A DNA stretch of 11,846 nucleotides from Candidatus Heimdallarchaeota archaeon. Its GTDB lineage: Archaea > Asgardarchaeota > Heimdallarchaeia > Heimdallarchaeales > Heimdallarchaeaceae. The stretch's first letter is position 1; every line of letters begins with the position of its first letter. Positions 1 through 11,846 of the stretch are shown one piece after another. The position numbers and the translations under genes were made by a program. The stretch spans positions 1-11,846 of the forward strand of contig JAHLWR010000041.1 of assembly GCA_019057815.1 (NCBI GenBank), given 5' to 3'. The notes beneath the pieces were generated by a model. It did not search any database, was not told where the DNA came from, and saw only the letters and a list, made by a program, of their open reading frames with translations.

Positions 1-1
1 T

Positions 2-862
2 AATTCTGCAGTTGCTAACAACACTTGTAACAGCAATGGCGAGGGCATCAAGCTTCGATTTTCTGGGAGTTCGACGGTTGCAAACAACACGTGCTACAAC
101 AATGGGGATGGTATCTATCTTTACGATTCTGAGAGTTCTACTGTCCTTAACAACACTTGCAGCGACAATGGGGATGGTATCAAGCTTGAGTCTTCTGATA
201 GGTCTACAGTTGTTAATAACACTTGTAGCAACAACCACAGAGGTATCAAGCTTGAGTCTTCTGATAGGTCTACGGTTGTTAATAACACTTGTAACAGCAA
301 CGACTGGGAAGGCATCTATCTTTTCAATTCTTTTGGTTCAACTGTTGTTAACAACACTTGCAGCAATAACAACTTGGGCATCTTTATTGATGATTCTGAT
401 CGTTCTACTGTTACCAGAAACACTTGTAGCAACAATCACGACTGTGGCATCGAGCTTTACGATTCTAGTTATTGTGTTGTTACTTATAATCTTCTACAAG
501 AAAACGTTGGTTATGGAGTGTACATATTTACTGGTTCTGGCGGTAATCTTATTCACCATAATACCTTTGTAGGCAATAGTCTAGGAGGAACTTCACAAGC
601 ATATGATAGTGCATATAAGAACGTCTGGTATGACCCTGAGACAAAAGAAGGGAATTATTGGTCCGACTGGTCAGGTACAGGTTCTTATTCTATTGATGGT
701 TATACTGGTTCAGAAGATCTCTATCCTCTCGATGAACCTGCTGAATATTCAGTTGAATCTACTACAGATGAAAATCAATTAAACTTTACAATTACTCTCA
801 TAATGTTAGTAGTTCCCTTAATGCTTACAAGGATAATCTCAAAGAAGTCAAAGAAAAAATAG
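2..862 (+). CDS. Right-handed parallel beta-helix (NosD/CASH-like) repeat surface protein with C-terminal membrane anchor, 5'-partial
   Basis: The frame of track ORF 374..862 stays open back to base 2 and reads NSAVANNTCNSNGEGIKLRFSGSSTVANNTCYNNGDGIYLYDSESSTVLNNTC..., i.e. 22-23 aa repeats of GIxLxxSxxSTVxNNTCxxN. These are followed by a cap region (HHNTFVGN...AYD...NVWY...GNYWSDW...DLYPL), a hydrophobic helix and a KKSKKK tail. The TTG at 374 is internal. Confidence 0.9.
   Translation, partial: NSAVANNTCNSNGEGIKLRFSGSSTVANNTCYNNGDGIYLYDSESSTVLNNTCSDNGDGIKLESSDRSTVVNNTCSNNHRGIKLESSDRSTVVNNTCNSNDWEGIYLFNSFGSTVVNNTCSNNNLGIFIDDSDRSTVTRNTCSNNHDCGIELYDSSYCVVTYNLLQENVGYGVYIFTGSGGNLIHHNTFVGNSLGGTSQAYDSAYKNVWYDPETKEGNYWSDWSGTGSYSIDGYTGSEDLYPLDEPAEYSVESTTDENQLNFTITLIMLVVPLMLTRIISKKSKKK
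176..293 (+). repeat. Near-perfect tandem duplication (66-bp period) inside the beta-helix coding repeats
   Basis: ggtatcaagcttgagtcttctgataggtctac(a/g)gttgttaataacacttgta occurs at 176-227 and 242-293, identical at 51 of 52 nt. More degenerate 66-69 bp units run from about 2 to 450. Confidence 0.95.
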
Positions 863-964
863 AGCAGAGGATGAGAAGAACCTTTTCTAGAATACTAACA
901 ATTCTTGAAGATTGATGTTCTAAGAGTTCTTCCATCATAAGAGATTCTAACCCTTAAACAATTA

Positions 965-983
965 TTTTTTTCTTTATTTTTTT
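965..983 (+). terminator. Oligo-T tract between convergent genes, candidate archaeal-type intrinsic terminator
   Basis: tttttttctttattttttt lies about 100 nt downstream of the beta-helix stop and just beyond the stop of the convergent gene. Confidence 0.45.
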
Positions 984-991
984 ATTATAAT

Positions 992-1579
992 TTATTTAAT
1001 TCTTCGTTTCCTTAGATACACAAAAGAAACCAACACTAAAAAACTCAAAGTAGAAGCGAAACCATTTGTTAGTTCAGTATCATTATTACTTGTTTCCGTA
1101 TTAGTTTCTGTTATAGTAGTAGCTGTTTGTATAGGAATTTGAATGTAATATTCTCCAGGAAGAGGTTCAACTATATTATCTATACTCAAGAAATCTAAAG
1201 AATCAGGCACAATTACTGAACTATAATTCTCATATACAATCATTATGTGGTAACCTAAAACTGACCCTTCTGGGTATGTTACGTTAAATATTCCACTAAA
1301 TATATTCGGACTAATCTTCTCCATCTCAATTGGAGCTGAACACACGAAATCCGGTGATAATTGACATAGTAAGAGTCTTATATTGAGGATTTCAGTCTGA
1401 TCATAAAAATCGATTGTAACATTAAGATTCATTCCTGTGCTGATAGTTTCAGGTGAATGCTGAATTGTCGTAATTCCATAATCCTTTGCGTAGGCTGTCA
1501 TACCTTCATTTTGGAAAAGAACTAAAATAAGTATAAAAACAAATAAACTAATAGAATATATTTTAGAATTTTTTTTCAT
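992..1579 (-). CDS. Small secreted, C-terminally anchored protein with a beta-rich (probably Ig-like) domain carrying a C-x7-C pair
   Basis: The ATG at 1579 is separated by 1 nt from the upstream stop at 1581. The protein has a signal peptide (MKKNSKIYSISLFVFILILVLF...AYA), only two Cys (LLLCQLSPDFVCSAP), a Thr-rich linker, then NGF, a TM helix and RKRRIK. Confidence 0.85.
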   Translation of the reverse strand: MKKNSKIYSISLFVFILILVLFQNEGMTAYAKDYGITTIQHSPETISTGMNLNVTIDFYDQTEILNIRLLLCQLSPDFVCSAPIEMEKISPNIFSGIFNVTYPEGSVLGYHIMIVYENYSSVIVPDSLDFLSIDNIVEPLPGEYYIQIPIQTATTITETNTETSNNDTELTNGFASTLSFLVLVSFVYLRKRRIK

Positions 1580-1580
1580 C

Positions 1581-2864
1581 TTAAGTTCCAATGAAAAATT
1601 CGAGTAATAAATATATTCCTACACCAATAATTAAAGCGCCACTAACCTTCTTAATAACTGAAGTGGAAGCTTTTAGTTTTTGAAGAATAGCATCTTTTGA
1701 GATACTAAGTAGTATAGTTGTACCTATCATTAATAGTAAAACAGTCAAAATGAAAGCTAAATATGCAAAAATCATTTTGATTATACTATCTTGAGAAGAG
1801 ACTTGTAGACTAAAGGCAAGGAAGATAGGAGCATTACAACCTAATGAGGCTATCCCATAACCTAAACCATACAAGAAAGTACTGGTAATTTTAGCTCTTA
1901 CTGAGGTTTTAGAATCTTCTTGAACATATTTCATTTGCTTTTTCCTAATCCATCCCAATATTCTAGAAAATGTTAGTGAATAATTAGTAAACATAAAAAT
2001 ACCTAGGATAAGAAAAATACCTCCAATTATAGGCAAAGCATACACAATATAGGGCATAATAGCGTTTCCAACAGCGCTTACAATTATTCCTAGAATTAGA
2101 TAACTAATTAAAATTCCTATGCCTCCAAACAATCCTAGAATTCCAAAAAATAGATGACTACTCCGTTGTTTATCAGTGCTCTCTTTATCTTCCATCTCTT
2201 TCTTATCGTTTGCATCAATATTTAGAATATGAGCAAGGTAGCTTGGTAGTAATGGAAACGAACAAGGTGAAAAGAAAGAAGATATCGCTACTATGATTGC
2301 AAAACCGATAATTACTCCTTGATAGCTTATTAAGGTTTGAGTTTTTCTAGAACCCTCTAGAGTTTCCAGAACAACGGTTTTTAATTCTTCGTAAGAAATA
2401 ACGCCTTCATTGTCTAAAGTAATCCCGCTTTCAGAATTTAAGATGATGATTGTTGGAAGATTGATTACTCCAAAATCAGTTTGCATACTTGGAGGAGCTT
2501 GAACGAATTTCCAAGTTATATTGTAAGATGTAGCATATTCTATCATCTGTTCGTGTGTTGTACCATTATATACTTCAATAGATACGATCTCTAGATTATC
2601 TTTAAGTTCAGGTTCTTCGAGCAAAGAGATAAACCGTGGATACATAAGTTTGCAAGGTCCACACGAATAGCTCATGAAATCAAGTATAACTACCTTAGGC
2701 TGCAGAGATTCTATTGTAAAAACAGTTTTTTCAATAGTTTCAAGGGTATAATTAGGAGCTTCTGTTAATTCCTCACCTTGTGATTGAATTATAAAATATA
2801 ATCCTACAGCTCCCCCAATAATAAGAACTGAAATTATTAAGATAGATACTTGACTCTTTTTCAC
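1581..2864 (-). CDS. Fusion of an N-terminally anchored TlpA/redoxin-like thioredoxin domain to a CcdA (DsbD-beta-like) transmembrane electron transporter
   Basis: GTG start and N-terminal TM helix. The thioredoxin domain has APNYTL...VVILDFMSYSCGPC...NLPTIII. Six hydrophobic segments follow, with the CcdA Cys motifs SFFSPCSFPLLPSY and SLGCNAPIF and the C-terminal KKVSGALIIGVGIY. Confidence 0.92.
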   Translation of the reverse strand: MKKSQVSILIISVLIIGGAVGLYFIIQSQGEELTEAPNYTLETIEKTVFTIESLQPKVVILDFMSYSCGPCKLMYPRFISLLEEPELKDNLEIVSIEVYNGTTHEQMIEYATSYNITWKFVQAPPSMQTDFGVINLPTIIILNSESGITLDNEGVISYEELKTVVLETLEGSRKTQTLISYQGVIIGFAIIVAISSFFSPCSFPLLPSYLAHILNIDANDKKEMEDKESTDKQRSSHLFFGILGLFGGIGILISYLILGIIVSAVGNAIMPYIVYALPIIGGIFLILGIFMFTNYSLTFSRILGWIRKKQMKYVQEDSKTSVRAKITSTFLYGLGYGIASLGCNAPIFLAFSLQVSSQDSIIKMIFAYLAFILTVLLLMIGTTILLSISKDAILQKLKASTSVIKKVSGALIIGVGIYLLLEFFIGT

Positions 2865-2886
2865 AATACTTCGAAATATATTGGGT

Positions 2887-2900
2887 TATTTATATTTTCT
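2887..2900 (-). promoter_or_regulatory. Putative archaeal BRE-TATA promoter giving a leaderless or near-leaderless mRNA for the Trx-CcdA gene
   Basis: The minus strand reads AGAAAA-TATAAATA, ending about 23 nt before the GTG at 2864. No Shine-Dalgarno sequence precedes the GTG. Confidence 0.6.
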
Positions 2901-2901
2901 G

Positions 2902-2930
2902 AAAAGAGAAAAAAAAAAGAAGAATGAAAA
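2902..2930 (-). terminator. U-rich terminator-like tract immediately after the stalked thioredoxin gene
   Basis: The minus strand reads TTTTCATTCTTCTTTTTTTTTTCTCTTTT directly after the TAG at 2931. Confidence 0.6.
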
Positions 2931-4307
2931 CTATTTTCTCTTTCTATAAGCAACAGTTCTTCTTAGCGCGAAAACAATTGTAAAAAGTATTAAGATCCCT
3001 ATACTGATGTAGCCTGCTTCAGTTGTAGTTTCTGTTGCCAATGTTGTAGTTGTTTCTATAGATGTGGTAGTTTCAGTTGTTGTGGTTGTTGTGGTTGTTG
3101 TTTCTTCTGGAGGTTCCTCAAGTATTGTTTCTTCAACCACTAGATTCCCTGCAACGTCTTCGAACACAAGTAATATAGTAAATTCATGAGGTGCACCCAT
3201 ACTATAAAGCATGTTAACCGAAGCTTGCAAGTGAGATGAATTGTATTCTGTGAAAATGGTATTTCTTATAAGAACATCATCAATATAGAACTCTAACCTT
3301 GCTGTTGTTAATAGAAGATCTTCTGTAATTTCTGCGAGTATTTCAACTTTATACATTGTTTCTGTTAATTCAGTAAGAGTAATGTTATAGCCACCCAAAA
3401 CCGGTGGTCCTGCGTCAAAGTAGGGAGTAGAAGACGATACAATTGTTGAAGATATGTTATAATTTTCAAAATAGTCTAAGGCATCAATATAAACACTAAA
3501 AGTATCAATTCCATAAAGATACTCTGGTAAAATTGTTATGGTTTCGTTTATGATGAAACTTCCATTTAATTTAGTTGGAGTGAGTTTTTCAATAATAGTA
3601 TGGATACCTGCATTTATGTGAGCATACGAACTTTTTACATTCCTATCATCAGTGATATTAGCGTAGAGGTTGAAGCTTGGGTTGAATATAGATATTTCTG
3701 TAGTGTTTGTTATTGCTAGTTCAGTAAATGCTGGTTTTTGAGTATCATCAGGTAAATATCCTTGTATGATTGGCATCATTGTATCATACCAGAGTTCGTC
3801 ACTTATCCCCGCGTCTAAATATTGAATTACGCCTGAAGGATCAATGATAACAAATGTTGGAATAAATCCAGTACCATAAATATTACTAACAAGATTATTG
3901 ACTTCTATTCCAACAATCCAGTCCATACCGCGAGATTTTCGGAAAGCTGAAACTTGAGCTTCTGTTTCAGTTTCATCGACATCAATTGATATAACTTGCA
4001 GCATACTTTCAGGATACATCAGATATAATTCTCGGATGAAAGGCATAGAAATTTCACAAGGACCACACCATGTAGCCCAAAGATCTAAGAATATGACTTT
4101 TCCGTAAAAATCACTTAAACTGTGATTAACCCCTGTATCTACGTCTACAATCCAAAAATCTTCAGCTGATTCACATACTGATATATTGAGCTGGTTTTCT
4201 TGATCATTGTAATAGATACTTGTATGTGCAAAACTTGCAAAGCTGGTTGCTATTATTATTGTACCTAGAAAGATAAACAATAACGCAATTTTTTTCTTAT
4301 CATTCAT
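2931..4307 (-). CDS. Secreted TlpA/ResA-like thiol-disulfide oxidoreductase on a beta-rich stalk, with Thr-rich linker and C-terminal membrane anchor
   Basis: Signal peptide, then SLSDFYGKVIFLDLWATWCGPC and the cis-Pro motif GFIPTFVIID. Two Ig-like-looking modules begin DDTQKP and FDAGPP (ANITDD...V and AEITED...L; IDALDYFEN and FEDVAGN). The protein ends with poly-Thr, AGY, a TM helix and RKRK. Confidence 0.92.
   Translation of the reverse strand: MNDKKKIALLFIFLGTIIIATSFASFAHTSIYYNDQENQLNISVCESAEDFWIVDVDTGVNHSLSDFYGKVIFLDLWATWCGPCEISMPFIRELYLMYPESMLQVISIDVDETETEAQVSAFRKSRGMDWIVGIEVNNLVSNIYGTGFIPTFVIIDPSGVIQYLDAGISDELWYDTMMPIIQGYLPDDTQKPAFTELAITNTTEISIFNPSFNLYANITDDRNVKSSYAHINAGIHTIIEKLTPTKLNGSFIINETITILPEYLYGIDTFSVYIDALDYFENYNISSTIVSSSTPYFDAGPPVLGGYNITLTELTETMYKVEILAEITEDLLLTTARLEFYIDDVLIRNTIFTEYNSSHLQASVNMLYSMGAPHEFTILLVFEDVAGNLVVEETILEEPPEETTTTTTTTTETTTSIETTTTLATETTTEAGYISIGILILFTIVFALRRTVAYRKRK
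3076..3101 (-). repeat. 9-bp tandem unit encoding the poly-Thr linker
   Basis: The + strand reads gttgttgtg-gttgttgtg-gttgttgt, within the EETTTTTTTTTETTTS linker. Confidence 0.7.
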
Positions 4308-4348
4308 AGACTATCTGAAAATGTAAGTTATATCTGAACTTTTTCTAG

Positions 4349-4360
4349 AAACAAAAAAAA
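4349..4360 (-). terminator. T8-containing tract downstream of the NTPase gene, candidate terminator
   Basis: The minus strand reads TTTTTTTTGTTT about 32 nt after the stop at 4393. Confidence 0.45.
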
Positions 4361-4392
4361 CATTTCACGCGAAAAGCGTTTATACACTTAAA

Positions 4393-4926
4393 TTAGGGAT
4401 TTACAAACAATTTAAGATGTTCTTCAATGCTTTTGCAAAACTTTTCAAGGGTTTGTTTGGACGGGTATTTCTTGATTTCCAAGGTTCCCTTGGGAACAAT
4501 AGCTAAGAGATTTAGAATTTTACTCTTAACATCTTCTCTAATGCATAAAATCATAAGCTTCTTATCGCTTTTTTTCACGATTTCTACTACTTCATGTATT
4601 GAAGTATATAATCCCTTTCCTTTGCTTTCTAACAACCCTAGTTCGTCTATAATTATAACATTAGATAACAACGATCTTCTAATAACTCTGTTTCCAAAAT
4701 CTAAGGATTTTTGGGAGAAAACAAATTTACCAATCTTTTCTCCTATCAAATCCCCTTCCTGGAAAAAATTACTACGTTGACCAGTCTCTAAATCTAAAAA
4801 AAACCTTTCTTCTTGACCTTGAATGATTAACCCAAAAACCTTATAATTTTCTTTTAAAACCTCTGATAAATCAAATAAAAAAGTAGATTTTCCTGTTCCT
4901 TTCTTTCCCGTTATGACAAAGAACAG
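4393..4926 (-). CDS. THEP1/NTPase_1-family P-loop nucleoside triphosphatase (177 aa if initiated at CTG 4926)
   Basis: The frame of track ORF 4393..4749 is open upstream to a TAG at 4959-4957. It reads (L/M)FFVITGKKGTGKSTFLFDLSEVLKENYKVFGLIIQGQEERFFLDLETGQRSNFFQEGDLIGEKIGKFVF..., with Walker A GKKGTGKST, IGKF and Walker B VIIIDELGLLE. The start position is inferred. Confidence 0.88.
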   Translation of the reverse strand: MFFVITGKKGTGKSTFLFDLSEVLKENYKVFGLIIQGQEERFFLDLETGQRSNFFQEGDLIGEKIGKFVFSQKSLDFGNRVIRRSLLSNVIIIDELGLLESKGKGLYTSIHEVVEIVKKSDKKLMILCIREDVKSKILNLLAIVPKGTLEIKKYPSKQTLEKFCKSIEEHLKLFVNP

Positions 4927-4939
4927 TTTCTTCCACCGC

Positions 4940-5575
4940 CTATTGTTGAGATGACACTATTTCTAACCAAGATTCAAGAATATGAACCAATCCTTTTGCT
5001 CCTGCATCAACAACATTAGCATCTTTTAGAACTTTTAGCATGTCTTTTGTCTTTGCAAGAGTGGATTTTCCTATTTCTACAAGTGTAGTCATGAAATCAA
5101 CCCAACTAATATCAGGATTTTCAATGATAAGTTCTTTTGATCTCTCTGTTATAACCTTCATAATTGTTAGAATGGTACCTTCAGTAGGATTAAGTATTGC
5201 ATCATAAGCCATTTCAGTACCTTCATCTAGTGCTTTAGAAAAGTCCTTAGGAGTAGTATTAGTTTTTCCTTCTAACGCCTCCACAACTCCAATCAAGAAC
5301 TGGGAATAAATTACTCCTGAATTTCCTTTTGCACCAACAAATGCACCTTTTGAAATTGCTGAGATAATTGAATCATGATCATCATCTTCTGCTAGATTAT
5401 CAACTTCATCGACTATAGCTTTAATTGTATAAAAAAGATTATTTCCTGTGTCCCCATCTGGTATTGGGAAGACATTTATGGCGTTTATGTTTTCTTTCTC
5501 AATAGCTATAATTTCTTGACTTTTTTCCATCATTTTCTTTAGTAAAACAGTTCGTATATTTTTCGTATTAAACAT
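4940..5575 (-). CDS. Stand-alone DAK2 domain protein of the FakA/YloV (fatty-acid kinase A) N-terminal type
   Basis: Motifs INAINVFPIPDGDTGNNL, GAKGNSGVIYSQF, PTEGTILT and LKDANVVDAGAKG. The ATG at 5575, preceded by GGTGAG with a 7-nt spacer, is preferred over 5641 and gives 211 aa. Confidence 0.9.
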   Translation of the reverse strand: MFNTKNIRTVLLKKMMEKSQEIIAIEKENINAINVFPIPDGDTGNNLFYTIKAIVDEVDNLAEDDDHDSIISAISKGAFVGAKGNSGVIYSQFLIGVVEALEGKTNTTPKDFSKALDEGTEMAYDAILNPTEGTILTIMKVITERSKELIIENPDISWVDFMTTLVEIGKSTLAKTKDMLKVLKDANVVDAGAKGLVHILESWLEIVSSQQ

Positions 5576-5760
5576 TATATATCTCACCAACAAGGTTACA
5601 TTCTTTTCTATTTCCACTTCTTTAAAAATATTATCATGCAATAATTATTATTAGTTTTTTTTGCTGAAATAGTTACTGTTTCACGTGATAGTATATATGT
5701 AATTAATCACATACAAATCTTTTAAAAAAGCAAACTTCAGATTTACTCAAGGTTACAAAT
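5576..5760. promoter_or_regulatory. Divergent promoter region (DAK2-NTPase versus GH57-glgA)
   Basis: AT-rich intergenic stretch with TTTAAAAA at 5721-5728 (+), TTTTTAAA at 5628-5621 (-) and a central palindrome TCACGTGA at 5681-5688. Confidence 0.55.
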
Positions 5761-6903
5761 ATGGATTTTACTAAAGATGTTCCTGTTGCATTTATTCTTC
5801 ATGCTTACCAGCCCATAACACAAACAGAACAAATTATTGTAAGAATTGTTAATAAATGCTATGAGCCATTCTTTACAAAGCTTCTAGAAAATCCACAAAT
5901 CAAGATTACTTTGAATATATCAGGATGTCTAGTTGAAAAGCTAGAGAACGATTATCCTCAGGTAATAAAATTAGTTAACAAAGGTATTTCATCAGGTCAA
6001 ATCGAAATTATGGGTTCAGCTTATTACCACGCTTTATTACCTCTACTAACAAAAGATGAGCAGAATTATCAGATAACAAAACAGCAGATGATTATTCAAG
6101 AAGTTTTTAACATTTTACCTACATCTTTTTTTCCACCTGAGTTAGCAATTTCGCCAACTATTTTCGACTCTTTAACATTAAATGGGTTTGAAAATATTAT
6201 TTCTCCATCTAACGTTTTTCTTGAACCTTATGGTGGGATTCTCAAGGTTACAAGTGATAAATCGATTTCTATTATTAAAAGAAATAAAATACTGAGTAAT
6301 AGTATTGCTTTTAATGGTTATAACAACAACTCAAAAAGAGCTTTGAAAGATATTTTACATGCATTTCAGACTTCTTCAATTCCAGTTGTTTTAGCTATGG
6401 ATCTTGAAACTTTTGGAGAACATCATGAAAATTATTACAATTTCTTTTTCGAATTAATGAACGAATTACAAAGTATTCAAGTATCAGAACTTTCTAGAAA
6501 ATATAAGATTGCAGAACAGGTCGGGATTTTACAGTCAACTAGTTGGTCTACTGATGATGTTCAGCTAAAGATGGGGATACATTTCCCTCTATGGGATCAC
6601 CCCCAAAATCCTGTTCATCAGCTCCTCCATTCACACCTTGAACTCCTAAGACAAATCAAACAAAAAGTTTCCTTGAGTAGTTGGTTAGAGGATTATCATG
6701 CTTCTTTTTACTCTTGTCAATTCTGGTGGGGATCTGAAGAATGGTGGAATAAAAAATTAGTTCTTACTGGTCTGGGTTTTCAAAGGAAAACGCTGGAAAA
6801 TATCGTTGAAAACCTTCCTGAATCCGACAAGAACATGATAATCAATCTTTCAGACAACATTATTAAAAGAGTTAAAAAATGTAATCTTGGGAAAGAGAAA
6901 TGA
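5761..6903 (+). CDS. Glycoside hydrolase family 57 protein (short alpha-amylase/amylopullulanase-like)
   Basis: GH57 conserved regions FILHAYQP, EIMGSAYYHALLPLL, FFPPELA (nucleophile Glu), AMDLETFGEH (acid/base Asp), STSWS and SCQFWW. Confidence 0.9.
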   Translation: MDFTKDVPVAFILHAYQPITQTEQIIVRIVNKCYEPFFTKLLENPQIKITLNISGCLVEKLENDYPQVIKLVNKGISSGQIEIMGSAYYHALLPLLTKDEQNYQITKQQMIIQEVFNILPTSFFPPELAISPTIFDSLTLNGFENIISPSNVFLEPYGGILKVTSDKSISIIKRNKILSNSIAFNGYNNNSKRALKDILHAFQTSSIPVVLAMDLETFGEHHENYYNFFFELMNELQSIQVSELSRKYKIAEQVGILQSTSWSTDDVQLKMGIHFPLWDHPQNPVHQLLHSHLELLRQIKQKVSLSSWLEDYHASFYSCQFWWGSEEWWNKKLVLTGLGFQRKTLENIVENLPESDKNMIINLSDNIIKRVKKCNLGKEK

Positions 6904-8375
6904 ACATTATATTCTGTTCTACAGAAGTAACACCATTTTCTAAAACTGGAGGTTTAGCCGATGTATCTGCTGCTATACCCAGATCTTTAGAAAAACTTGG
7001 AAATTCTATATGTATTATTACTCCATTTTACAAATTTATTGATATTCAAAAATATGACTTAGTACTTGTTCGTGAAAAAATAGGTGTACAAGTAGGAGAC
7101 GCGATAGAATTCATGGATTTGTATAGAGGAATCCTTCCAGATAGTAGTATTCTAGTATACTTCATCAAGAATCAGTTCCTCTATAGAGAGGGGCTCTACG
7201 TTGATGAAAAAGGAATAGAATATGAGGATAGTGCTATGAGATTTATATTCTTTAATAAAGCAATATTCACAGTTCTAAAGCATTTACAGCTTAAAGCAGA
7301 TATCATACACACCAATGATTGGCATACTAGTTTAGTTCCGTTTTTTCTAAAAAGCGAATATCATTCAGAATATTTATTCAAAGAAACCAAGACAATTTTC
7401 ACAATCCATAATATCGGTTATCAAGGAATCTTTCCTGTAGAAGATGTACAAGAAGCTAATATACCTGAAATTTATTTCACTGAAGAGTGTCTTGGTTACT
7501 ATTCAAAGATTAATTTCATGAAATCAGGTATTCTCTATGCTGATCTAATTACAACGGTTAGTCCAACTTATGCAAATGAAATCCAAACGAAAGAATATGG
7601 ATTCGGATTAGAAAAGTATATTCAAAAACGAAAAAATGATCTTTTTGGTATTGTTCATGGAATAGATTATACTGAGTGGAACCCTAGTATTGACCCATTT
7701 ATTAAACAAAATTATGATAAAAATAATATAAATGGTAAAGCGATTTGTAAAAGTGATTTACAGCTAGAAATGGGATTGGAAATATCAGATAAGCCTTTAA
7801 TAGGTATAGTCTCAAGGCTTGCACCCCAAAAAGGGATAGATTTAATTTTAGAGATTTTCGATCAAATGATGAATCTTGATATCCAATTTGTATTATTGGG
7901 AACAGGTGATTATGCTCTTGAAAAAGCTTTGAAGAAAAAAGAAAAAAAGTTTAAAGGCATGTGTTCAATCATTATTGATTTTAATAATAAACTTGCTCAT
8001 AAAATAGAAGCTGGGGCAGATATTTTCCTTATGCCTTCTATTTATGAACCCTGCGGATTAAATCAAATGTACAGTATGGTCTATGGAACAGTTCCAATTG
8101 TAAGAAGAACAGGAGGGTTAGCTGATACAGTTAAGAATTTCGACACTTTGACAGCCAAGGGGACAGGTTTTGTATTTGACAAAATTGATGCTAAAGAGTT
8201 ATTCGATACAGTTCAAAGAGCAATAAATCTCAGAAGCAATCCTAAAAAATGGAAAAAATTGCAAAAAAACATCATGAAAATTGATTTCTCGTGGCAAAAT
8301 TCTGCTAAACACTGGCAAGAAGTGTATAGAAAGGTATTAAACGAAAAAGGACAGAAAAAGAAAAAGAGTGTTTAG
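6900..8375 (+). CDS. glgA: Glycogen synthase (GT5)
   Basis: Motifs KTGGLADV, HTNDWH, TIHNIGYQG, TTVSPTYA, VSRLAPQKG, MPSIYEPCGLNQM and TGGLADTV. The start overlaps the upstream GH57 stop as ATGA. Confidence 0.97.
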   Translation: MNIIFCSTEVTPFSKTGGLADVSAAIPRSLEKLGNSICIITPFYKFIDIQKYDLVLVREKIGVQVGDAIEFMDLYRGILPDSSILVYFIKNQFLYREGLYVDEKGIEYEDSAMRFIFFNKAIFTVLKHLQLKADIIHTNDWHTSLVPFFLKSEYHSEYLFKETKTIFTIHNIGYQGIFPVEDVQEANIPEIYFTEECLGYYSKINFMKSGILYADLITTVSPTYANEIQTKEYGFGLEKYIQKRKNDLFGIVHGIDYTEWNPSIDPFIKQNYDKNNINGKAICKSDLQLEMGLEISDKPLIGIVSRLAPQKGIDLILEIFDQMMNLDIQFVLLGTGDYALEKALKKKEKKFKGMCSIIIDFNNKLAHKIEAGADIFLMPSIYEPCGLNQMYSMVYGTVPIVRRTGGLADTVKNFDTLTAKGTGFVFDKIDAKELFDTVQRAINLRSNPKKWKKLQKNIMKIDFSWQNSAKHWQEVYRKVLNEKGQKKKKSV

Positions 8376-10090
8376 AGCTCAAACCATTTGTAAACGTCTT
8401 GTTCCCAAGCTATACTGTCTTCTTTTTCTAATTTGTCAAGAAGTTGAAACTGATGCTCTGATAATGAATTTTCATGGCTTTCCTTGAAGATTTCATGAAG
8501 TTTTTTGAAACTTTCATAGTGTTGAGACACTCTATGCTCTGCATAATCTCGGGCTGCCCAAGTTGAAATAAGAAATGTCCAATCTGAAGAAGAAAGTAGG
8601 AATAACTCTCTTCCCATTTGATTAATAAGCCTCTTAGTTACTGAGAAATCTTTATGGTGTTTCTTCTTAAAATCCTTCAGATCTTGCAAATATATCTCTT
8701 CACATTCATAGATATGTTTCCATACCCACATCGTATCTTGATTAAGCCAAATCCAATGAAAAGAACCCTTACCCCAAGAACCTTCTGGAAGCGAAACAAC
8801 AGTATCAGCTTTTGGAGGATAGGTTTCAAGGTACTTTTTACTAGTAATCATGGAAATTTCATCATCTTCAGAGACTAGATTAATAACTCTATCAAGAAAA
8901 CCTACTCCTTCAAACCACCAATGTCCTAAGAGTTCAAAGTCATATGGACTAACAACTGCTCCTGGCTTAGAGTTTTCATCATAATACTGTAATAAGTTCT
9001 CTTTAACCATTTTTACGAAATATGCGGAATTTTCATCTAATCGTTCTACAACTTTATTTGGTTCGTAAAGTTTTTTCTCACCAAGATCAACATCAGAACC
9101 TGTTACACGCCAATATCTATTTCCAGAGGAGAAATGCTTTTTATGAAATTCTAGGTAATAACCATCTCCTGGAAATCCATGTTCTCCAGACCAGACTAAA
9201 ATTCCTGTTTTATCATCACGTGTTAAGAAACTAACATTATTTTCAAGATTTTCTGATCCTCCTGCGATATAAGGACGATAGATAGAAAGATTTTCTCCTT
9301 GAATATCTTGTTTTTGTTTCTCAAATTGTTGCCATAAAAGTTGAAGGGCTGTGAATCTGTCTAGGTAGGTGCCTATTCCTTCACCTCCTCTTAACAAGGG
9401 AGTATCAACTAAGAAATATTTGATGTTATTCTTCTGAATGTAATATTCAACCCCTTTTCTTTCAAATTCTTCTTCAGTAACAGGATTCCTCCACTTATAA
9501 CTAGGTCTATATGCTAACTCTGGTAACCAAATACCAGAGCTATCTCGACCGTAACGATATCTATAGATATGCTGTCCACCCTTTATTTGAGCATTAACAG
9601 TTTCCTCTTTACCTAAGAGAGGTAGATATCCATGAGAAACACCACAAGTAATTATCTCAATTGCTTCCCTATCTTGTAATTCTCGATATCCTAATGTCAA
9701 ATCACTGTTAAATCTCTCTACAAATTGTTCTTTGACAGAGCTATAGAATTCAGCCCACCTTATAGATAATTTAGCTGTTTCAGAATCACCAATCCAATTA
9801 AAGTGATCTTTATCTTTATAACTAGCATTGATTCTGTCTTCAAGAAAGTTAACAAAACCTTCCTTAAATCTGGGATGAGCTAGTTGCTCTGTTAAAACAG
9901 GTGTTAAACCTATTGTTACCATTTCAGTGTAACCTTTCTTTTCTGAAAGATCAGTTAACATTGATAAAGTTGGACAATAAGTTTCAGCTGTTGCTTCATG
10001 GAGCCATACTTCACCATGAGGCCATGTTCCCTGTTCTAGAACCCAAGGAAGATGTCCATGTAAAACGAAATTAAGATATCCTTTAGTCAT
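8372..10090 (-). CDS. GH57 1,4-alpha-glucan branching enzyme (DUF1957-containing type)
   Basis: Motifs FVLHGHLPWV, GEVWLHEATAETY, HGYLPLL, GIWLPELAY (nucleophile), YLEFHKK, YWRVTG, PYDFELLGHWWFEG (acid/base), EGSWG and ELFLLSSSDWTF. Confidence 0.94.
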   Translation of the reverse strand: MTKGYLNFVLHGHLPWVLEQGTWPHGEVWLHEATAETYCPTLSMLTDLSEKKGYTEMVTIGLTPVLTEQLAHPRFKEGFVNFLEDRINASYKDKDHFNWIGDSETAKLSIRWAEFYSSVKEQFVERFNSDLTLGYRELQDREAIEIITCGVSHGYLPLLGKEETVNAQIKGGQHIYRYRYGRDSSGIWLPELAYRPSYKWRNPVTEEEFERKGVEYYIQKNNIKYFLVDTPLLRGGEGIGTYLDRFTALQLLWQQFEKQKQDIQGENLSIYRPYIAGGSENLENNVSFLTRDDKTGILVWSGEHGFPGDGYYLEFHKKHFSSGNRYWRVTGSDVDLGEKKLYEPNKVVERLDENSAYFVKMVKENLLQYYDENSKPGAVVSPYDFELLGHWWFEGVGFLDRVINLVSEDDEISMITSKKYLETYPPKADTVVSLPEGSWGKGSFHWIWLNQDTMWVWKHIYECEEIYLQDLKDFKKKHHKDFSVTKRLINQMGRELFLLSSSDWTFLISTWAARDYAEHRVSQHYESFKKLHEIFKESHENSLSEHQFQLLDKLEKEDSIAWEQDVYKWFEL

Positions 10091-10094
10091 TTTT

Positions 10095-10100
10095 CTCCTC
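10095..10100 (-). promoter_or_regulatory. Shine-Dalgarno sequence of the branching enzyme gene
   Basis: GAGGAG-AAAA-ATG sits in the 15-nt gap after the phosphohexomutase-like gene, which implies co-transcription. Confidence 0.75.
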
Positions 10101-10105
10101 TTGTT

Positions 10106-11533
10106 TTAGTTTGTTGATACTTCATTATCTATTCTTCGGACTAAGTCCAATATTTCAATAAGTAATTTTTCCCTATCTTCTTTATTTTCAGCACATACTT
10201 TAACAATCAAAGTTGTAGAAATTATACTCGCATAAATATGAGCCCATTTTCTAGCTCCTGATACTATTTTGACACCGTCTAGTGTGTTTACAACTCTCCC
10301 ATCTGTATCAGTTTCATATATTTTTTTGAAAAACAAAGTTGGATCAGCATTCAGTCTATAATACTCTTCTAAATACATATTTTCGTCGACAACGTCATTT
10401 TCTTCTGCAAAAGAAGAAATATATTTGTGTTTTTCATTTTGAGCAAAAGACCAAAGAAGTAACAATGTCGACACAAAAGGTTCTGATTCATTCGAAAATG
10501 TTGGGTGTATATAGCTTCCATGTTCATTTGCTCCAAATAATGCTCTTTTAAACTGTATTAATCTCGACATTTCTCCTGGAGAGCCTCGAGTAAAAGTGTG
10601 AGAAATATTCTTTTCATTGAGCCATTTTTCTAAAACCCACATTGTTTCAGCCAAAACAACATGTCCTTTTTCTCTTCCTATCATCTTGTTTTTCAGGAGA
10701 ATTGTTGCAATAACATGTGAATCAATAATCTTTCCATGCTCATCCATAAAAATAACTCTAGAACCACTAGGGTCGAATGCTATACCCAAATCAGCTTTTG
10801 CTGCAACAACAGTACGAGATAGTATTGTCAAAGAAATAGGGCTTGGAAGCGATTCAGGGATTCCATCAGGTCTATAAGAATTAAGTGTAAATATTTTACT
10901 TCCTAACTCAGCCATAATGTTAGGAAATATCTCAGCTACAGGACCTAATGAACAGTCAACTACAATAGAAAAATTCTTTTCTTTCAAAACATCATAAGGC
11001 ATAGCAGATCTAATAGCTGAACGATACAAATCGTTTGCTTGGTGTACTGATAAAATGTCAGCAATCTTATCAGGAGCTGATCTAATAATTTTCCGCTTTT
11101 GTAATTTTTCTTTCTCAAAAATCTCTGTGAAGGGTAACTCTACACCTGTTTGGTCAAAGATTCGTATATTAATTTTTTCTGGAGATCTGTGAGCAGAAGC
11201 AAAATGCACTCCTGCATGGGCACTAAATCTACGGAGAGCAAATTGTAAAACAGGTAAAGAACATGCGTGCAATTCAAAAACTGTTGTTCCTACGGAGATT
11301 AAACCTGCATTAAATGATCGACTAATCATACGAGTATCTTTTCTGAAATCTCTAGCACTTACAACAACTGCTTCTTCACCTCCCAAGTAGCTACCGAATA
11401 GAGCACCTAATGTTGAAGCTATCTCAGGAGACAATTCTGTTGCTGTTCCTGCTAAACGGTTTTTTCTCATAAGAGAATTGTAATCATAATTCGACAATGC
11501 TTCCATTACAAAAAAATATAATAATTCAACCAT
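10106..11533 (-). CDS. Alpha-D-phosphohexomutase (PMM/PGM) superfamily homolog with degenerate catalytic motifs
   Basis: Fold-defining motifs ELSPEIASTLG, VVSARDFR, GLISVG, IVVDCSLG, ADLGIAFD, DEHG and TLDGVKI. The ATG at 11506 (MEALSNYDY...) is an equally plausible start, about 27 nt downstream of a TTTAAA box. Confidence 0.85.
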   Translation of the reverse strand: MVELLYFFVMEALSNYDYNSLMRKNRLAGTATELSPEIASTLGALFGSYLGGEEAVVVSARDFRKDTRMISRSFNAGLISVGTTVFELHACSLPVLQFALRRFSAHAGVHFASAHRSPEKINIRIFDQTGVELPFTEIFEKEKLQKRKIIRSAPDKIADILSVHQANDLYRSAIRSAMPYDVLKEKNFSIVVDCSLGPVAEIFPNIMAELGSKIFTLNSYRPDGIPESLPSPISLTILSRTVVAAKADLGIAFDPSGSRVIFMDEHGKIIDSHVIATILLKNKMIGREKGHVVLAETMWVLEKWLNEKNISHTFTRGSPGEMSRLIQFKRALFGANEHGSYIHPTFSNESEPFVSTLLLLWSFAQNEKHKYISSFAEENDVVDENMYLEEYYRLNADPTLFFKKIYETDTDGRVVNTLDGVKIVSGARKWAHIYASIISTTLIVKVCAENKEDREKLLIEILDLVRRIDNEVSTN

Positions 11534-11750
11534 TTAAATCTTATCGGAAATTTTCTCTTTCTAATAATTTGATTTCGAGATTTTTAAAACGTCATCAAAG
11601 CTGAAAATCATAATATTAGTGATTTGGATACGATTCTCCTTAGTAATAGAATAGCGATAGGACATTCTGAAATAGAATCTACAGAGTCCTCATGCTGTGA
11701 AGAGTAATTCTTTGAGACACAAATTCAGTCATAAAATCACCATTCAACCT

Positions 11751-11846
11751 TTATTTCAGTCTCCTAACAAGAAAGCGATAATCATTGGGGTCACTCTCTT
11801 CTGCGGAAATCACTTCTTGACCTGTGACATGAGCCCAGGCTGGAAT
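11751..11846 (-). CDS. tusA: TusA/SirA-family sulfur carrier protein, 3' end only
   Basis: Not in the ORF track. The minus strand from 11846 translates IPAWAHVTGQEVISAEESDPNDYRFLVRRLK*, matching the TusA C-terminal pattern (D)IPAWxxxxGxxxxxxxxxxxxYxFxIxK. The catalytic CPxP motif lies outside the window. Confidence 0.8.
   Translation of the reverse strand: MPAWAHVTGQEVISAEESDPNDYRFLVRRLK

Follow-up and report, generated by a model that had tools for sequence, protein, structure and literature searches.

In bacteria the systems that export reducing power, DsbD, ScsB and CcdA, have been well mapped; in archaea this has hardly been done. A stretch of 11,846 nucleotides from the genome of a Candidatus Heimdallarchaeota archaeon (assembly GCA_019057815.1, the whole of contig JAHLWR010000041.1, positions 1 to 11,846 of the forward strand; referred to here as the window) raises the question of how such a system might be assembled in an Asgard archaeon, and what part a small secreted protein might play in it. 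On the minus strand, running from 4307 to 992, three genes stand head to tail in the same orientation and encode a stalked thioredoxin (P0003), a fusion of a thioredoxin (Trx) fold to a CcdA-type transmembrane (TM) domain (P0001) and a small anchored protein (P0002). We see an even chance that these genes constitute a CcdA-based route for reducing equivalents from the cytoplasm to the surface, with P0002 as a dedicated cysteine-pair component that is not itself a thioredoxin. The three adjacent genes, each with its pair of cysteines, lie where a preliminary description of this DNA had placed them, and its reading of the trio as one thiol-redox module is now backed by conserved adjacency, co-loss and Rosetta-stone fusions. 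The arrangement exceeds chance, as CcdA is single-copy in this genome and the pairing of the fusion with the small gene recurs in 24 genomes.

P0001 (1581 to 2864, minus strand; 427 residues) consists of an N-terminal TM helix, an external Trx fold (Thioredoxin_8, 37.3 bits) and a six-helix DsbD_TM/CcdA domain. The DsbD_TM match (PF02683) appeared only when the TM part was scanned separately and not in the scan of the whole protein; residues 170-427 alone scored 27.6 bits against a cut-off of 27.1, over positions 4-215 of the 219 in the profile. This match is marginal but full-length. A profile search of the whole genome (3.74 Mb, 95% complete, with a full-length actin gene at 446 bits and E 1e-133 and two more actin-family genes, as expected of an Asgard archaeon) found the same gene as its single DsbD_TM gene, at 26.4 bits, or 27.5 with the neighbours in frame. 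P0001 contains exactly four cysteines, C68, C71, C201 and C343, and all are invariant across 25 homologues. The first two form the CGPC motif of the fused Trx domain (SCGPC; 2652 to 2663), C201 lies in SPCSFP of TM1 (2253 to 2270) and C343 in LGCNAP of TM4 (1827 to 1844), in agreement with the earlier reading of PC in TM1 and GC in TM4 of a CcdA domain carrying an N-terminal CGPC thioredoxin. The wider patterns around the two membrane cysteines, FSPCxFPxLP in TM1 and GYGxASxGC in TM4, are likewise invariant in the 25 fusion proteins, which come from Asgard, Poseidoniales and Thermoplasmata loci. On this sequence evidence the CcdA assignment of the TM part holds. The one-chain alpha-beta-gamma layout of DsbD and ScsB was not found, as the Trx domain of P0001 is N-terminal and nothing follows TM6.

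Poseidoniales (marine groups II/III), Thermoplasmata and other metagenome-assembled genomes (MAGs) also encode fusions with the layout of P0001 (N-terminal helix, Trx, CcdA), at 21-29% identity, and in two Bathyarchaeia loci Trx and CcdA are encoded by separate neighbouring genes. The marine group II/III fusions (loci L010-L036) are widespread and 458-483 residues long, and some carry long cytoplasmic N-terminal extensions.

The TAA stop codon of P0001 is followed by one base and then by the ATG of P0002 (992 to 1579, minus strand; 195 residues). In P0002 a signal peptide precedes a domain of some 115 residues (approximately 33-150), after which come a Thr/Asn-rich linker, a TM helix and RKRRIK. 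Its sole two cysteines lie in the context LLLC72-QLSPDFV-C80-SAP (C72 to C80 at 1340 to 1366), so the small anchored protein with a 1-nt gap and only two cysteines was correctly read in the preliminary description. Pfam and NCBIfam gave no family match, apart from TRL, which matched the signal peptide at E 0.042. A word-indexed homologue search returned two close relatives only; phmmer, run exhaustively against 1.84 billion representatives, returned 69 proteins at E of 1e-3 or below, 36 of them at 1e-10 or below. A profile of the family gave only chance-level lectin and netrin matches (E of at least 0.009) among the PDB sequences. Judged by these searches, P0002 founds a rare unannotated family. 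Only five positions are at least 90% conserved in a 58-member alignment, and both cysteines are among them (C72, P76, C80, G109 and P125). The family consensus at the pair is C-x-[LI]-x-P-x-[FY]-x-C, with seven residues between the cysteines in P0002 and four to seven across its relatives.

Every orthologue adjoining CcdA retains a pair of the C72-C80 type. Tandem or nearby paralogues of P0002 without C-x7-C were also observed (L055:9386-9985, L049:2585-3169, L056:8359-8949, L061:6446-7090 and L053:5415-6059). One type has an ICAC motif and two more cysteines; in the other an inserted loop carries CPNC, a CxxC motif that could serve as a separate redox or metal site. Because these paralogues keep fold-level similarity without the pair, C72-C80 is by this comparison dispensable for the fold.

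How firmly is the small protein tied to CcdA? The family was found in 31 of 301 genomes of the phylum, all within one class and spread over four of its taxonomic families (f1, f3, f5 and f6). In 24 genomes (15 from f1 and 9 from f6) the orthologue is the next gene downstream of the Trx-CcdA fusion, in the same orientation, and the spacing between the two varies from an overlap of 26 nt to a gap of about 40 nt; in one genome (G002) the first 42 codons of the small gene are visible before the contig ends. In f5 the small gene comes after a Trx-only gene, and in f3 the context is mixed, with one orthologue beside a CcdA open reading frame (ORF), one beside a Trx gene and two with neither inside 8 kb.

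Losses within f1, the closest family, are informative as well. Both genes are present in 14 f1 genomes and neither in nine, and two genomes without the fusion keep a decayed remnant of the small gene; an intact small gene is found in f1 only where the fusion is present. In G001, a sister species of the same genus whose flanking DNA is about 95% identical, 3108 bp corresponding to window 1246-4353 (at 8489-8491 of L046, on G001:C8) have been cleanly deleted, and with them roughly the first 110 of the 195 codons of the small gene and the entire Trx-CcdA and stalked-Trx genes. Both flanks remain syntenic, and no obvious direct repeat was seen at the borders. In G021 the remnant (G021:C75:188224-188580, within L104, G021:C75:184000-194000) is N-terminally truncated, has a premature stop and abuts a gene for a THEP1-like nucleoside triphosphatase (NTPase). 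Both redox genes are gone at this locus, and the query used did not find Trx-CcdA in G021. CcdA was lost twice independently and the small gene decayed each time, which argues for functional dependence.

Natural fusions give the link a covalent form. In P0054 (399 residues) a signal peptide is followed by the small-protein domain with a C-x6-C pair, a short linker and TM1 of CcdA, so that the domain sits where P0001 has its Trx domain. Three contigs, from three samples, encode an identical P0054, and upstream of it lie a separate gene for a 202-residue Trx and one for a 326-residue Omp28-like protein. P0072 (598 residues) and an ORF from a Thermoplasmata MAG (L014, 590 residues) combine the domain, two TM helices, Trx and CcdA in one chain. 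A third arrangement is found in P0065 (555 residues), a stalked WCGPC Trx like P0003 in which the Cys-pair domain is the last module before the anchor. In all four proteins the cysteine pair is kept, as C-x6-C or C-x7-C. Attachment to the CcdA TM domain is therefore both genetic, through translational coupling and adjacency, and covalent, through the N-terminal fusions P0054, P0072 and L014. P0049 joins the domain to a Redoxin-like fold that has lost its CxxC, and the gene for P0052, a more distant family member, has Trx-type genes on both sides with 4-nt overlaps. The linkage to ccdA and trx genes that the preliminary description had asked about is thus seen in 24 genomes and in the fusions, and its proposal that a protein otherwise annotated as hypothetical belongs to the module stands on adjacency, co-loss and fusions to CcdA and thioredoxins. 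We conclude that P0002 very probably belongs to the CcdA pathway.

The Omp28-like domain (PF11551, up to 37.3 bits) recurs beside distant members of the family (L065:2991-3971, L106:3-1070 and L107:2-373), and in one case it follows a Trx fold within a single chain. It could be either a client or an additional component.

What kind of domain carries the pair? AlphaFold2 run on the P0002 sequence alone gave a poor model, with a predicted local distance difference test score (pLDDT) of 53, and this was replaced by a model made with a 58-row alignment. The mean pLDDT of the second model is 88, rising to 95-98 over residues 31-150, and it describes a nine-strand all-beta sandwich. In the model C72 ends a long strand (64-75), a turn follows at 76-78 that includes P76, and C80 lies in a short return strand (79-80). 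We searched with Foldseek and with an exhaustive VIA-align pass, and among the matches listed there were only generic immunoglobulin-like (Ig-like), E-set and FN3 domains. The top VIA-align match was the N-terminal domain of a GH5 mannanase (Z 10.7, root-mean-square deviation 2.7 Å over 97 residues), in a pass that gave 918 chains at Z of 5 or above. With confidence, the domain is predicted to be an Ig-like beta-sandwich, and DsbD-alpha belongs to the same fold class (Cho & Beckwith 2012, PMC3322552).

The preliminary description had called the small protein 'alpha-like' and proposed an AlphaFold and Foldseek comparison with DsbD-alpha. The fold prediction and searches bore out the fold class, an Ig-like sandwich; the matches listed were generic, and nDsbD was not among them. 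Homology to DsbD-alpha was undetectable: DsbD_N (PF11412) gave no Pfam match to P0002 at E up to 10 and none anywhere in the genome at E up to 1, and hhalign of the family alignment against residues 1-151 of E. coli DsbD gave a probability of 0.2%. Since no homology to DsbD-alpha is detectable, 'alpha-like' can mean analogous only.

Elsewhere in this genome the family profile has weak matches (E from 1e-6 to 1e-2) to domains and anchors of giant surface proteins, whose ORFs reach 3225 residues; such matches lie at G000:C38:185854-186192, C3:13956-14357 and C39:76407-76640, among others. The P0002 domain may derive from a common surface-protein module.

The third gene encodes P0003 (2931 to 4307, minus strand; 458 residues), an extracytoplasmic thioredoxin of the TlpA/ResA-like type. 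It begins with an N-terminal signal/anchor (ASFA|HT), followed by the Trx fold, a stalk of about 210 residues, a Thr-rich linker, a C-terminal TM helix and RKRK. The Trx fold matches Redoxin at 51.2 bits and AhpC-TSA at 46.8 bits, both above the cut-off. Its CGPC active-site motif (C81 and C84, in the context WATWCGPC; 4056 to 4067) makes WCGPC residues 80-84 of an exported, anchored CxxC Trx fold, and the earlier picture of a WCGPC thioredoxin on a long anchored stalk is confirmed. Its closest NCBIfam model, the ResA subfamily, scored 96.8 bits against a cut-off of 170, and by this measure P0003 is a ResA relative and no ResA orthologue. The stretch of about 210 residues after the Trx fold had no family match. 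We considered whether the P0002 domain could be a copy of this stalk, and detected no relation (BLASTP E of at least 0.5; hhalign probability 0.9%). The C-termini of P0002 and P0003 (window 992-1060 and 2931-3000) share a layout of Thr-rich linker, hydrophobic helix and basic tail, and in P0002 and many orthologues NGF or GF precedes the helix, which recalls sorting signals of the PGF-CTERM type.

A route through the three proteins can be proposed in three steps. Cytoplasmic thioredoxin would reduce C201 and C343 of CcdA, as is expected from knowledge of the family. The electrons would then pass from C201/C343 to external acceptors close to the membrane, which could be the fused Trx domain (C68/C71), P0002 (C72/C80) or both, with P0002 made in step with CcdA through translational coupling. 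In the third step P0002, on its flexible Thr-rich tether, would act as a thiol-disulfide shuttle to distal Trx-fold proteins such as P0003, which in turn would keep surface proteins reduced. An adaptor of this kind could serve Trx-fold proteins that lie out of reach of the doubly tethered Trx domain of P0001, for instance the Trx at the distal end of the P0003 stalk. The redox activity of C72/C80, the order of transfer and the final clients are those we infer from the arrangement. The order set out in the preliminary description, from fused Trx to small protein to stalked Trx, is plausible; the architecture of P0054 suggests that transfer from the CcdA cysteine pair to the domain may be direct instead. 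P0065, with the domain at the membrane and the Trx distal to it, fits the adaptor picture.

By analogy, the role of P0002 would resemble that of DsbD-alpha and ScsB-alpha, and it appears to be an independent invention. A broader form of this proposal is that Asgard archaea, together with some Thermoplasmata, independently evolved an Ig-fold, non-thioredoxin cysteine-pair shuttle for CcdA, convergent with DsbD-alpha and ScsB-alpha, which exists as a free protein or in domain-CcdA and domain-Trx-CcdA chains. We hold this wider claim tentatively, at slightly less than an even chance.

Several observations weigh against P0002 as an adaptor. No sequence similarity of P0002 to DsbD-alpha was detected. 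Two f3 orthologues (L059 and L060) have no CcdA or Trx gene within 8 kb. The small-protein family was not found near the Poseidoniales and Bathyarchaeia Trx-CcdA loci, within flanks of up to 5 kb per side and less on short contigs, and because none was found in the Poseidoniales flanks it would seem that a Trx-CcdA fusion can work without the small protein. When a secreted Ig-like domain has a conserved cysteine pair, the pair often forms a structural disulfide. Clients, too, are commonly fused or adjacent to reductases, as in TlpA-Msr. A complex was also predicted. With P0001 and residues 28-195 of P0002, both supplied with alignments, the score was 0.36 against 0.00 for the best of three controls, with at least 53% contact agreement between runs and a partner pLDDT of at least 70. 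In the calibration of this score, 58 of 80 solved complexes passed the mark, as did 2 of 110 mismatched pairs, and the passers at 0.60 or below comprised 7 of the 80 solved complexes and both of the passing mismatches. The prediction is thus a weak indication of association between P0001 and P0002, and we give it little weight.

The first of the other explanations is that P0002 is the terminal client of the system, a protein whose disulfide, once reduced, would switch on a surface function such as two-thiolate metal binding, adhesion or sensing. Linkage, co-loss and fusions fit a dedicated substrate equally well, and because reductases are often fused to their substrates, linkage and fusion cannot tell an adaptor from a client. 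In P0054, moreover, the domain stands directly on CcdA and nothing further is fused. The usual clients of such systems are also absent from the searches: the 95%-complete genome gave no match to cytochrome c assembly proteins of the CcmC/CcmF/CcsA type (PF01578) and none to MsrA (PF01625), and the module may serve something unusual. Against this reading, the positions conserved besides the cysteine pair are P76, G109 and P125, with no His, Met, Asp or other ligand-like residue among them. The location of the domain in P0065, between the membrane and the distal Trx, suggests a position through which electrons pass, and the second, stalked Trx of the operon needs an electron donor that is able to reach it. 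We regard a terminal client as unlikely, though well short of negligible.

P0002 could also be a non-redox subunit that stabilises or positions Trx-CcdA, with C72-C80 as a structural disulfide. Translational coupling across 1 nt and strict co-occurrence are typical of subunits, P0002 has a TM helix of its own, and the complex score described above gives weak support to an association. A precedent exists in the plastid CCDA/CCS5(HCF164)/CCS4 pathway, where a CcdA and an anchored Trx-like protein are accompanied by a small anchored protein that the pathway requires, CCS4, which may support CCDA in this way and is termed 'a protein of unknown function' in a preprint (bioRxiv 10.1101/2022.10.14.512171). 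Three features of the family are harder to place in such a role. The paralogues lose the cysteine pair and the CcdA-adjacent orthologues never do, which is not what one would expect if the bond were purely structural; a structural disulfide secreted next to a reductase would risk reduction; and the TM anchor is dispensable in P0054. CCS4 is not known to have a beta-sandwich or a conserved cysteine pair, and no homology to P0002 is claimed. On balance a CCS4-like role seems improbable. Finally, P0002 could be an ordinary S-layer-associated Ig-domain surface protein co-transcribed with Trx-CcdA by chance, given the generic fold matches and the weak profile matches to Ig-like domains and anchors of the giant surface proteins, but this is hardly credible for a gene pair adjacent in 24 genomes of two families, with two independent co-deletions followed by decay and at least three fusion architectures in separate lineages.

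If P0002 is taken as an adaptor for CcdA, how does the locus compare with systems already described? E. coli DsbD (DsbD_N PF11412, DsbD_TM PF02683 and a C-terminal Trx) has the same elements, a cysteine pair in the membrane, an external CxxC Trx and an external Ig-like sandwich whose own pair sits on a strand-turn-strand (for P0002, as predicted in the model), and P0054, P0072 and L014 resemble it further in that their Ig-like domain precedes the TM domain in the chain. In contrast to DsbD, the Trx of P0001 is N-terminal of the TM domain and not C-terminal, the TM domain is of the six-helix CcdA type, and the Ig-like module is free-standing with its own anchor and a C-x7-C in place of C-x5-C. 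P0002 has no detectable sequence tie to DsbD_N, and its archaeal host has one membrane and no periplasm. A parallel is offered by ScsB (Cho & Beckwith 2012, PMC3322552), which makes up the third class of the superfamily and has an alpha domain that differs from that of DsbD, and with it different Trx-like and peroxiredoxin clients (ScsC, TlpA and PprX). ScsB, however, is a single alpha-beta-gamma chain of proteobacteria and Chlamydia, whereas the system here is split, permuted and archaeal, with an alpha-like component of another family.

The closest parallels in organisms with one membrane are CcdA-ResA/StoA of B. subtilis and CcdA1/2-Etrx1/2-MsrAB2 of S. pneumoniae (PMC3914529), which share the six-helix CcdA, the tethered TlpA/ResA-like thioredoxins and the likely purpose, the reduction or repair of surface proteins. 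Unlike the present locus they lack a non-Trx cysteine-pair module and have known clients (apocytochrome c, spore proteins and MsrAB); here one Trx is fused to CcdA, and the genome searches turned up no cytochrome c maturation gene and no MsrA. An Asgard transporter census mentions CcdA homologues generically only (PMC7997004). The preliminary description knew of no account of this arrangement, and a literature search of limited scope likewise turned up no description of it or of the small protein. We view the locus as a modular reductive pathway of the DsbD/ScsB/CcdA type, probably analogous to the known ones and new in its permuted order, its free Ig-like module and its archaeal host.

These comparisons give an unannotated family a concrete, testable role beside CcdA. 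A second, apparently independent Ig-like cysteine-pair adaptor would also make the design logic of DsbD testable by comparison. If the proposal is true, the locus would add a further architecture class to the DsbD superfamily, and the rule that a Trx-fold donor needs a non-Trx adaptor for Trx-fold clients would have been found twice. As no cytochrome c maturation gene and no MsrA were found, the pathway raises the question of which surface proteins are its clients, and these bear on how mostly anaerobic relatives of eukaryotes cope with oxidants.

Two familiar purposes were considered for the module and set aside on the genome searches given above, namely cytochrome c maturation (no PF01578 match) and extracellular methionine sulfoxide repair (no PF01625 match). 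A Cys-rich surface protein adjoins the redox module in the window (2 to 862, plus strand), a NosD-like right-handed beta-helix with one cysteine in each NNTCSNN coil and a C-terminal anchor. Its orthologue in G001 has 798 residues and 30 cysteines, and among the orthologous loci (L046:5477-7873 and L055:6100-7005) the gene stands inside the module in one relative. It is possible that this protein is a client and that its thiols have to be kept reduced. Two genes that are not in this window come after the module in relatives, a small Cys-rich, zinc-ribbon-like gene and then a second exported Trx (L055:9942-10301 and 11817-12761; L057:8567-8893 and 8944-9744), and this second Trx ends in a Cys-rich C-terminal tail (...CANCSTKGCKNCGS...).

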